Positions 11,938 through 25,673 of a stretch of 25,943 nt of DNA are shown piece after piece. The notes under the pieces are model-generated. The model did not search any database, had not been told where the DNA came from, and was given only the letters and a program-made list of their open reading frames with translations. The translations under genes were made by a program, and so were the position numbers. Origin of the DNA: a virus (taxonomy: Duplodnaviria; Caudoviricetes); the IMG/VR virus record IMGVR_UViG_3300020442_003920, positions 1 to 25,943 of that record. One strand, written 5' to 3'. Position 1 is the stretch's first letter, and each line of letters begins with the position of its first letter.

Positions 11938-11945
11938 TATTTATA
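11938..11945 (-). promoter_or_regulatory. T4-type late promoter TATAAATA
   Basis: Perfect TATAAATA in the gp7-gp8 gap, 18 nt upstream of the gp8 ATG. Confidence 0.85.
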
Positions 11946-24539: not shown

Positions 24540-24547
24540 TATTTATT
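24540..24547 (-). promoter_or_regulatory. Late promoter variant AATAAATA
   Basis: 7/8 match, intergenic, just after the stop of the 73-aa ORF. Confidence 0.6.
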
Positions 24548-24552
24548 TGTAA

Positions 24553-24774
24553 TCAATATCGATCTGGAATGTCTCTATACTCCTCTGGAGAGAAAATTTC
24601 TCCTTCGGAAAGGGTTTCAGTGCGTTTTGCTTTATGATGCATCACTTCATTCAGTTCCATTTCCTCTGGATCTTCTGTTTTATGAGGCAAAGACCAATAA
24701 TCTGTCATCAAACTCGTTGTCCCCCACATTGCTTTCATGTATTCTGTGTTACGGTCTACAGGTGAATTACCCAT
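24553..24774 (-). CDS. Hypothetical protein (73 aa, acidic C-terminal half)
   Basis: AGGAG SD 4 nt before the ATG, an 8-nt overlap with the upstream stop, and an upstream late-promoter box. Confidence 0.8.
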   Translation of the reverse strand: MGNSPVDRNTEYMKAMWGTTSLMTDYWSLPHKTEDPEEMELNEVMHHKAKRTETLSEGEIFSPEEYRDIPDRY

Positions 24775-25498
24775 TTGTCTCCTGATCAGTTGAATCAGAA
24801 CTTTTTAAGGGGTTGCCATCCCTCGAATCGTATTTATTTTGTGGATATTCTTCCCTCTCTCCAGGTGTTGTCCAGAAGTAATCATCACAATCACCTAAAC
24901 GACCCCAAGATACACCATTTTCTACTTGATAGAACTCAGTAGAAACTTTAAAGTCAGGTATCTTGGGGTCTTCTGGAGTTAATGAGATGTCATAGATGCG
25001 ACATCTGTTATTTGGATACAGTGCATACTGACCATTGTACAGTTCAATCAAGTTAAATGACTTGTGTTCACTTGGAAGTTCACTGGTTGAATAGTCAATG
25101 ATGTCTGCATCACCGTGATAATTGTCTAAGGTACAAATATATTCACCTTTCATTGTACCAAAGTGTCGAGTGCGTATCTCCCACTCCATTGACCCTACAT
25201 GCTGCTTACACAGTGTAGTGACATCATGGTCCATACAGTTCCAAAACTGCAGGTTAGGGAGGTCTAGATCGGGGTCTGGTGTCTCTGGTTCTGCTACAAA
25301 GGCAGAAATCGGCAACTTATCAAACATTGCCGCATAATCTGGTAAGTATGTTTCAAAATAAAAGGCACGCCCTGGAAGACTTTTAGCAGCGATCCATATA
25401 CCTTTTACAAATTCACCATGTCCATACTCGTGATCACAAAGATATTCCTTACGAACCCAAGTATGAACTGCTGGTAAGTTAGTAATCAGTCTTGACAT
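24767..25498 (-). CDS. Phage hypothetical protein, function unknown (243 aa)
   Basis: Long ORF on the coding strand with globular, aromatic-rich composition (WVRKEYL.DH..GHGEF, QFWNCMD, EHKSFNLIEL.NGQYALYPNNR). Confidence 0.85.
   Translation of the reverse strand: MSRLITNLPAVHTWVRKEYLCDHEYGHGEFVKGIWIAAKSLPGRAFYFETYLPDYAAMFDKLPISAFVAEPETPDPDLDLPNLQFWNCMDHDVTTLCKQHVGSMEWEIRTRHFGTMKGEYICTLDNYHGDADIIDYSTSELPSEHKSFNLIELYNGQYALYPNNRCRIYDISLTPEDPKIPDFKVSTEFYQVENGVSWGRLGDCDDYFWTTPGEREEYPQNKYDSRDGNPLKSSDSTDQETNG
24779..24824 (-). promoter_or_regulatory. Candidate cis-regulatory RNA switch: pseudoknot versus SD-sequestering hairpin
   Basis: GAGGG-AUGGCAAC-CCCUU-AAAAA-GUUCUGAUU-CAACU-GAUCAGGAG-ACAA-AUG. 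The 8-bp hairpin UUCUGAUU/GAUCAGGA buries the SD, and its 5' arm can alternatively pair with the upstream loop. Confidence 0.5.
24831..24838 (-). promoter_or_regulatory. Late promoter variant AATAAATA, inside the 3' end of the 243-aa ORF
   Basis: 7/8 match, 56 nt upstream of the ATG at 24774. The predicted +1 falls at about the first nucleotide of the structured leader. Confidence 0.6.
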
Positions 25499-25526: not shown

Positions 25527-25673
25527 TCAACGACCTTGGCCACGATAACGCTTCTTTGCACCATTACGAGAAGATGCAGCGTACTTGGTGTGCTGTCCTG
25601 AACCTTGACGAGTCTTTTTGGGGGTAGACTCGATCATGTTCCCACCAATCAGAGACTTTTTAATCTTTGCCAT
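25527..25673 (-). CDS. Small highly basic protein (48 aa), probably nucleic-acid binding
   Basis: Below the ORF-track size cutoff. MAKIKKSLIGGNMIESTPKKTRQGSGQHTKYAASSRNGAKKRYRGQGR*: 13 K/R versus 1 acidic residue, all five Arg codons are CGT, and there is an A-rich leader. Confidence 0.85.
   Translation of the reverse strand: MAKIKKSLIGGNMIESTPKKTRQGSGQHTKYAASSRNGAKKRYRGQGR

Follow-up and report, generated by a model that had tools for sequence, protein, structure and literature searches.

A 27-base pseudoknot core kept almost unchanged across hundreds of cyanophage contigs is likely an uncatalogued translation on-switch

Introduction

The preQ1-I riboswitch and the leader of T4 gene 32 are among the described leader RNAs that come closest to the element considered here. 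preQ1-I riboswitches sit upstream of genes for queuosine synthesis or transport; in these RNAs, a loop U contacts the ligand and a free C pairs with it. The available part of PMC10639078 gives P1 of preQ1-I as a stem of 5 bp and describes the T. tengcongensis form as controlling the Shine-Dalgarno (SD) sequence. In phage T4, gp32 controls its own translation via a pseudoknot in the leader, as stated in the accessible portion of PMC10690425. Riboswitches have been reported to be rare in phages, those described belonging to host-type classes (PMC9004378, accessible portion), and glutamine riboswitches have been reported in marine phages (PMC9964418 and PMC9004378, in the portions of text available). 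The available sections of the S-CREM1 genome paper list abiF, wcaG, manA and glnA RNAs (PMC9964418), and those of the S-SCSM1 genome paper list PhotoRC-II and wcaG (PMC9602691), in both cases elsewhere in the genome than the locus described below.

The present analysis concerns a window of 25,943 nucleotides, the whole stretch of DNA analysed, which according to its virus record is a fragment of a T4-like cyanomyophage. An earlier note, made from the letters alone, had proposed that a late promoter in this DNA is followed by a preQ1-I-like pseudoknot that excludes an SD-sequestering hairpin, and that a ligand or protein stabilising the pseudoknot would switch on translation of a 73-aa protein. 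The comparison with relatives reveals a structured leader that is real, widespread and built like a translational switch, and that is apparently undescribed. The motif was absent from the literature found by topic searches, and its sequence words matched two unrelated papers. It is not mentioned in the accessible text of PMC10690425 or PMC5737381, though a catalogue entry in the alignment files of either is possible.

Genomic setting of the leader

The minus strand holds all long genes of the window. The gene that follows the leader (24553..24774, minus strand; AUG at 24774) encodes the 73-aa protein, was assigned to phrog_1414 by family search and is presumably the regulated gene. It is preceded by a 243-aa gene (phrog_3704; 24767..25498, minus strand), whose last 25 codons run through the promoter, the core and the start codon and whose frame stops five bases past the AUG of the 73-aa gene. 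Family searches name the downstream neighbours as the baseplate genes gp25 (24496-24095, minus strand) and gp6. Among 111 phage records that match the 243-aa protein, 97 are named Synechococcus, Prochlorococcus or Cyanophage. The phrog_3704 profile match stops at residue 218 of 243, and most homologues match only up to about residue 217. These homologues are variously labelled PurM, ferredoxin or transcriptional regulator ('ferredoxin' in PHROGs); Pfam gives no support for such labels, which look propagated. Just upstream, in most loci seen, lies a gene for a very basic peptide (48 aa in the window, 25527-25673, phrog_516) that ends in RYRGQGR and is a candidate nucleic-acid binder. The site ahead of gp25 receives variable insertions, namely a 2OG-Fe(II) oxygenase in P-SSM2, CP12 in P-TIM68 and a SAM decarboxylase in S-SRM01.

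The 73-aa protein matches no Pfam family and has no useful named homologue among the best 120 of 1692; its Atlas entries are blank or viral hypothetical clusters only, and its structure model is of low confidence (pTM 0.30). It belongs to a short, modular, viral family: the best 150 of 209 representatives are all 34-142 aa long, and a related sequence is annotated in 232 phage records. The RNA also precedes versions of the protein without the conserved N-terminal module (10 listed), and the module occurs without the RNA. Modules of the family recur, reordered and without the RNA, in a longer protein encoded directly behind nrdB in Syn33 and S-RIM2 (loci L642:580-999 and L643:643-999). Members are rich in L/I/V-x-E words and often end in one; we take these words to recall the T4 prohead protease site.

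A motif scan placed the T4-type late promoter box AATAAATA at 24831..24838 on the minus strand, and, on the assumption of T4 promoter geometry, transcription would start just before the core. WATAAATA occurs 4 times in the window, 5.9 being expected from shuffles. The three other late boxes (2869-2876, 11938-11945 and 24540-24547) likewise lie on the coding strand, each a short distance ahead of a gene start; that at 24540..24547 (minus strand) stands in front of gp25, which therefore need not depend on the switch. Of 273 distinct copies of the leader, 166 have TAAATA no more than 20 bases upstream, 85 of them at a spacing of exactly 6 bases from the core, and the remaining 107 have none within that distance. 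The core starts 5-7 bases past TAAATA in 131 copies, and would thus often open a late transcript.

Control of gp25 or of the baseplate operon was considered and rejected, given the separate box of gp25 and the position of the RNA and the small gene among unrelated genes in S-SCSM1. The small gene is the likelier target, as the earlier note had it, since in S-SCSM1 the RNA travels with this gene and not with gp25. An intrinsic terminator or a sigma-70 promoter was also rejected, the scan being at chance level with no terminator at the core.

Architecture of the core

The conserved core comprises 27 bases (24797..24823, minus strand) predicted to form an H-type pseudoknot. It rests on conservation and covariation, scores 45.4 bits with model R1 and is the sole strong match of that model in the window. 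Numbered from 24823 to 24797, the core opens with the 5' strand of stem S1, AGGG (24820..24823; A1 G2 G3 G4), which pairs with 24811-24808. The loop AUGGCAAC (24812..24819) consists of a short loop, A5-U6, and then the 5' strand of stem S2, here G7 G8, a bulged C9 and A10 A11 C12, with R7 and N9 in the general numbering. It is followed by the 3' strand of S1, CCCU (24808..24811; C13 C14 C15 U16), identified by covariation, and by an A-rich linker, UAAAAA (24802..24807), for which the core alignment gives the consensus YWAAAA (Y17 W18 A19-A22). The linker is predicted to lie in the minor groove of S1, a role that we assume from known H-type pseudoknots. The last element is the switching strand GUUCU(G) (24796..24801; G23 U24 U25 C26 U27), which can serve either as the 3' strand of S2 or as the 5' arm of the hairpin over the ribosome-binding site. 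All these elements are on the minus strand; S1 joins positions 1-4 with 16-13, and S2 joins positions 7, 8, 10, 11 and 12 with 27-23.

Every letter on which the earlier note relied was found in place: the late box (24838-24831) and, six bases on, GAGGG (24824-24820), the loop, CCCUU (24811-24807), AAAAA, GUUCUG (24801-24796), the hairpin UUCUGAUU/GAUCAGGA (24800-24780) and AGGAG (24783-24779). The five-pair first stem that it described holds as a stem, but the conserved form has four pairs, AGGG/CCCU, and a six-base linker; a fifth pair is possible in only 80 of the 273 copies. The sixth S2 pair that it allowed, between position 28 and U6, fits the alignment, position 28 being a purine in 269 of the 273. 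The ViennaRNA minimum-energy fold of 24826-24770 consists of two hairpins, the first one and that over the SD, and single-sequence fold z-scores of -0.3 to -1.4 give no signal above shuffles. Taken from a single sequence, the observation is no more than chance; comparison with relatives confirms that the element is real.

Conservation and distribution

When named phages were searched at the DNA level, the matches set in with base 1 of the core. With the 73-aa protein as the only query, all 57 loci that had enough upstream DNA carried the core, and with two distant family members as queries it was present in 14 of 78 and 69 of 77 loci. Moreover, only 2 of the 140 motif-bearing loci found by protein alone needed a mismatch or gap to fit the relaxed core pattern. 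Estimates from part of each scan amount to about 1100 IMG/VR stretches for the exact pattern and about 2400 metagenome stretches for a looser one. The downstream frame scores with the N-terminal profile of the family in 105 of 120 metagenome matches, and the remaining 15 resemble this locus, except that the gene is shortened or too little DNA is available. Ten named phages carry the RNA (S-SCSM1, S-SKS1, S-CREM1, DSL-LC03, ACG-2014f, ACG-2014d, S-SRM01, S-RSM4, S-IOM18 and S-H38), and the window and three whole phage genomes each contain one copy of the core. The gene is present without the RNA in S-PM2, S-ShM2 and S-CAM1, and no core precedes gp25 in P-SSM2, Syn33, S-RIM2, P-TIM68 or S-SSM6a. 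Carriers and non-carriers are intermingled on a quick gp25 tree of 147 rows, with at least 12 changes forced by well-supported branches, a number to be read against the few columns of the tree and the mislabelling of four variant copies (L062, L287, L444 and L446) as absent by the strict pattern. Apparently decayed cores lie before intact-looking family genes at L444:750-771 and L483:301-327.

The 273 distinct core-to-start sequences derive from 404 matches. Fourteen have too little upstream DNA, and the other 259 were classed by a heuristic that considers open frames of at least 150 bases: 170 are intergenic, in 47 the upstream frame stops inside the core, and 42 are read through, 40 of these in the same frame. 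The window copy belongs to the cores inside an upstream open frame; relatives that are 90% identical (L072-L074) end their frame inside the core, in another register. The earlier note had looked to conservation at the nucleotide level, independent of reading frame, and this is what the intergenic majority (170/259) displays. Its suggestion that the tail NKYDSRDGNPLKSSD of the 243-aa protein is a by-product of the RNA element is likewise upheld, because the family profile ends at residue 218 and the 90% relatives end the frame in a different register; the core is, besides, mostly intergenic.

A pattern scan of GTDB gave 11 matches, 8 of which run into gp25/gp6-like genes, the other 3 being short contigs or contig ends with the same phage gene context. 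Model R1, run over 121 Cyanobiaceae-family genomes with 63 candidates scored per genome, recovered two known phage-like carriers and weak matches in 7 of the 119 further genomes; the latter are without the loop or S2 and lie mostly within coding frames or opposite them. The genomes searched by these two scans yielded no host-chromosome copy. Loci L269-L279 are cyanophage-like contigs within GTDB bins of unrelated taxa, one of them a 194-kb contig in a Synechococcus bin, and are probably mis-binned phage DNA.

Covariation of the two stems

Across 72 distinct cores, 98.5% of 648 cells pair, as compared with 89.9% after shuffling and 25-59% with slid partners, and two-sided changes were counted in 51 cells against 10.3 in shuffles. 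In S1, pair 3/14 is changed in 21 of the 72 cores, always with compensation and never broken; on the tree, A-U must have arisen at least twice, with several changes between C-G and U-A. Pair 1/16 shows a two-sided change in 27 cores and is broken in 6, and both pairs take all four Watson-Crick types. In S2, pair 7/27 is A-U in 56 cores, G-U in 10, G-C in 2 and unpaired in 4, and pair 8/26 is G-C in 70, A-U in 1 and G-U in 1; the three inner pairs never vary and therefore yield no covariation. Position 9 takes all four bases. It is deleted in one copy (L446), which has no bulge and a perfect five-pair S2, and another copy (L062) has a six-pair S2.

Because the search patterns fixed many positions, exclusion scans that forbade the usual bases were run; 16 of the 27 positions are fixed in the collected cores, a figure partly imposed by these patterns. 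The scan that forbade G8 and C26 gave 8 matches, one of them before a family gene (L448), where both 7/27 and 8/26 are restored by double compensation. In IMG/VR, forbidding A10 and U25 returned no family members among 23 matches, and forbidding C12 and G23 returned one among 26 (L483). In this copy, the C12/G23 change is uncompensated and the outer pair is also broken; it either counts against a strict need for C12/G23 or is a decayed copy. At the variable pairs, G-U (25) outnumbers A-C (4), which favours the minus strand as the RNA. On this comparative evidence S1 is well supported, and S2 has the support of few but telling cases. Together with the hairpin described below, covariation extends to all three helices of the earlier proposal, namely S1, S2 and the SD hairpin. 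The sequence-level outcomes that the earlier note had set against itself were conservation confined to the amino acids with free synonymous change and loss of the SD hairpin from homologues; neither was observed.

The competing hairpin over the ribosome-binding site

The hairpin opposed to S2 (24780..24800, minus strand) has eight pairs and buries the AGGA of the SD, as indicated by the fold and by compensatory changes of inner pairs. The SD itself, AGGAG (24779..24783, minus strand), lies four bases before the AUG. An SD-like word is present in 216 of the 273 copies; in two sets of family genes without the RNA, it is present in 61 of 64 and 6 of 8. Unconstrained folds predict strand 23-27 to be paired downstream with a probability of at least 0.5 in 263 of 273 copies. 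According to rough classes taken from minimum-energy folds, its partner includes the SD in 148 copies, lies next to the AUG in 59, forms a long hairpin that also takes the A-tract in 40 and belongs to some other hairpin in 24, and 2 copies have none. At least three hairpin designs thus cover the SD or the start region. Moreover, inner pairs of the SD hairpin covary among 173 linkers with AGGA (first pair, G-C in 115 and A-U in 17; second pair, A-U in 93 and U-A in 47).

Locking the pseudoknot, that is, enforcing S1 and withholding the pseudoknot strands from pairing, lowers the predicted cost of opening positions -15..+3 from a median of 8.5 to 3.4 kcal/mol, and from 9.8 to 2.6 in the window copy. 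The median gain is 5.0 kcal/mol in 90 sampled copies versus 1.2 in 540 SD-preserving linker shuffles, and a gain of at least 2 is reached by 96% of the copies versus 35% of the shuffles. The strand still pairs in 65% of the linker shuffles, since UUCU is complementary to any AGGA. By nearest-neighbour terms at 37 C, S2 stacking contributes ~4.4 kcal/mol against ~5.8 lost from the hairpin, before loop costs; the free RNA is therefore predicted to be OFF and a stabiliser seems to be needed, on energies that take in neither triples nor Mg2+. ViennaRNA, for its part, scores neither pseudoknots nor triples. The proposal that the pseudoknot and the SD hairpin exclude each other, with a predicted OFF ground state, agrees with the downstream pairing of the strand in almost all copies.

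Proposed mechanism and its alternatives

It is very probable that the element is a two-state translational leader of some kind. As to what operates it, the preferred reading, to which we assign a probability of roughly 0.4, is that this conserved cis-acting leader is a translational ON riboswitch of T4-like cyanophages gated by a small molecule or ion. The small molecule or ion would stabilise the 27-base pseudoknot, which would then pull GUUCU out of the hairpin covering the ribosome-binding site; the freed start region would in turn let the phrog_1414 protein be made. Switching in the cell would then have ON polarity and be triggered by a small ligand, other than preQ1 in its canonical mode; folding predicts that the OFF hairpin wins in the free RNA and that the pseudoknot opens the start region. 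In the window copy, both folds would be melted by ribosomes that complete the 243-aa gene on read-through transcripts, and the switch would thus mainly govern transcripts from the late box.

A small-ligand ON switch is favoured because a near-fixed core is combined with exchangeable platforms and because glutamine riboswitches have been reported in these phages. The layout is that of a riboswitch: a conserved aptamer-like core, covarying stems and a 5' leader were all found, and a variable platform exclusive with the core fold is predicted in 263 of 273 copies, above shuffled controls. On the other side, no empty pocket is evident because the pseudoknot can close fully, its own G23 on C12, and the invariant bases could all serve base triples. 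The core keeps a fixed place in front of a single gene family, and the presumed target is neither an enzyme nor a transporter and gives no hint of a ligand. Moreover, riboswitch classes are usually shared with hosts, which counts against this reading given that no host copy was found in the genomes searched. We regard as tentative the more specific proposal of a new, virus-only riboswitch class, with a 27-base aptamer smaller than preQ1-I, that would let T4-like cyanophages sense a metabolite or ion in the cell they infect and turn on a small late protein.

The same two-state leader may have a phage or host protein as its binder, which we consider rather unlikely. Such a protein would either clamp the pseudoknot (ON) or bind the S1 hairpin loop and let the RBS hairpin form (OFF). 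The phage-only distribution fits a phage partner, gp32 of T4 offers a precedent, and the gene for a basic peptide of 46-49 aa (phrog_516) lies just upstream in many loci; however, candidate partner genes of this type are also found in phages without the RNA there. Autoregulation through the N-terminal module of the small protein is unlikely, and simple autoregulation is disfavoured, because RNA and module each occur without the other. Distinctly less credible is a folding timer without any binder, in which the nascent pseudoknot would keep the RBS open briefly and then relax to the stabler hairpin, possibly tuned by temperature, so limiting the protein made per transcript. Delayed folding is known to control the MS2 maturation gene, transcription delivers every strand of the pseudoknot ahead of its competitor, predictions make the OFF fold the more stable, and the invariant bases can be read as tertiary contacts. 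A timer nevertheless requires stability rather than one sequence, yet 16 of 27 positions are fixed, and the 107 copies without a nearby TAAATA also speak against it.

It is more doubtful still that the pseudoknot is a constant cap at the 5' end that shields the late transcript from nucleases, with a hairpin that only damps translation and no alternation between the two. In 131 of 273 copies the core does begin 5-7 bases past TAAATA, where the 5' end is expected; however, the hairpin, in several unrelated designs, always takes its strand from the pseudoknot itself, and many copies are inside longer transcripts or an upstream reading frame. Very little weight is given to a GNRA tetraloop hairpin (G8-N9-A10-A11) next to a separate SD hairpin, without a pseudoknot. 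Although positions 8-11 fit GNRA in 272 of 273 copies, largely as imposed by the patterns, the closing pair would be A-C in 251 of the 273; the doubly compensated copy (L448) is not GNRA and yet keeps S2, the copy without N9 (L446) has its perfect five pairs and L062 its six, and U25, which faces G in the SD hairpin, never becomes C. Finally, the chance that the conservation belongs to the tail of the 243-aa protein or to a DNA site is close to nil: an upstream open frame does enclose the core in the window and in 42 of the 259 copies that were classed, with the same frame in 40, but the 170 intergenic copies contradict this reading, as do the 47 frames that end inside the core, the different upstream genes and the G-U excess over A-C, which favours RNA on this strand.

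If the preferred riboswitch reading is true, the trigger would reveal what state of the cell is being watched by these abundant viruses in late infection, and would offer a first way into a small protein that is widespread but has no assigned function. Should a protein turn out to be the binder, the leader would still represent an undescribed post-transcriptional circuit of cyanophages. Some carriers are in culture on Synechococcus WH7803 and CB0101; the papers on their genomes, in the accessible portions, list only Rfam RNAs.

Comparison with known RNAs

The Rfam scan proposed in the earlier note, preQ1 models included, returned no family at cut-off. The whole window gave 3 matches at E<=5, all elsewhere and far below cut-off; the region 24700-24900 gave 7 at E<=10, all far below cut-off; and eight related loci gave none at cut-off. 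A likeness to tmRNA PK1, ToxI, SAM-II/V, fluoride and pistol RNAs was also weighed and had no support from the Rfam scans.

The likeness to preQ1-I (RF00522) lies in a small H-type pseudoknot with a short first loop and an A-rich third loop, a compact form that is borne out here by covariation; moreover, the loop end of type II preQ1-I resembles that of the core, AGNAAC. In size and loop end, then, the resemblance seen by the earlier note stands, but membership in the family does not and was rejected. RF00522 had no match at E<=10 in the window, the control being above cut-off in 1 of 14 genomes, and P1 of preQ1-I has five pairs against the four conserved pairs of S1. Unlike the ligand contacts of preQ1-I, position 5 is A and C12 faces the core's own G23 in 72 of 72 cores. 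The predicted polarity is ON, in contrast to OFF for preQ1-I, the downstream gene is phrog_1414, and QueC was found in none of five motif-bearing phage genomes. GP20-b (RF03003) has a second hairpin that resembles S1 with its loop and the following A run, but its model requires a further hairpin upstream and stops short of any GUUCU partner; it was rejected at 11.5 bits against a cut-off of 36.2.

The cis-RNAs known from cyanophages, namely the glnA glutamine riboswitch, wcaG, manA and PhotoRC-II, are likewise phage-borne 5' leaders from the same phage family, but they are 37-215 bases long and occupy other genome positions. The T4 gene 32 leader is, like the present element, a phage leader whose pseudoknot controls translation. 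There, the pseudoknot nucleates repression by the gene's own product, a ssDNA-binding protein, whereas here the gene encodes a small protein without assigned function and the pseudoknot is predicted to free the ribosome-binding site.
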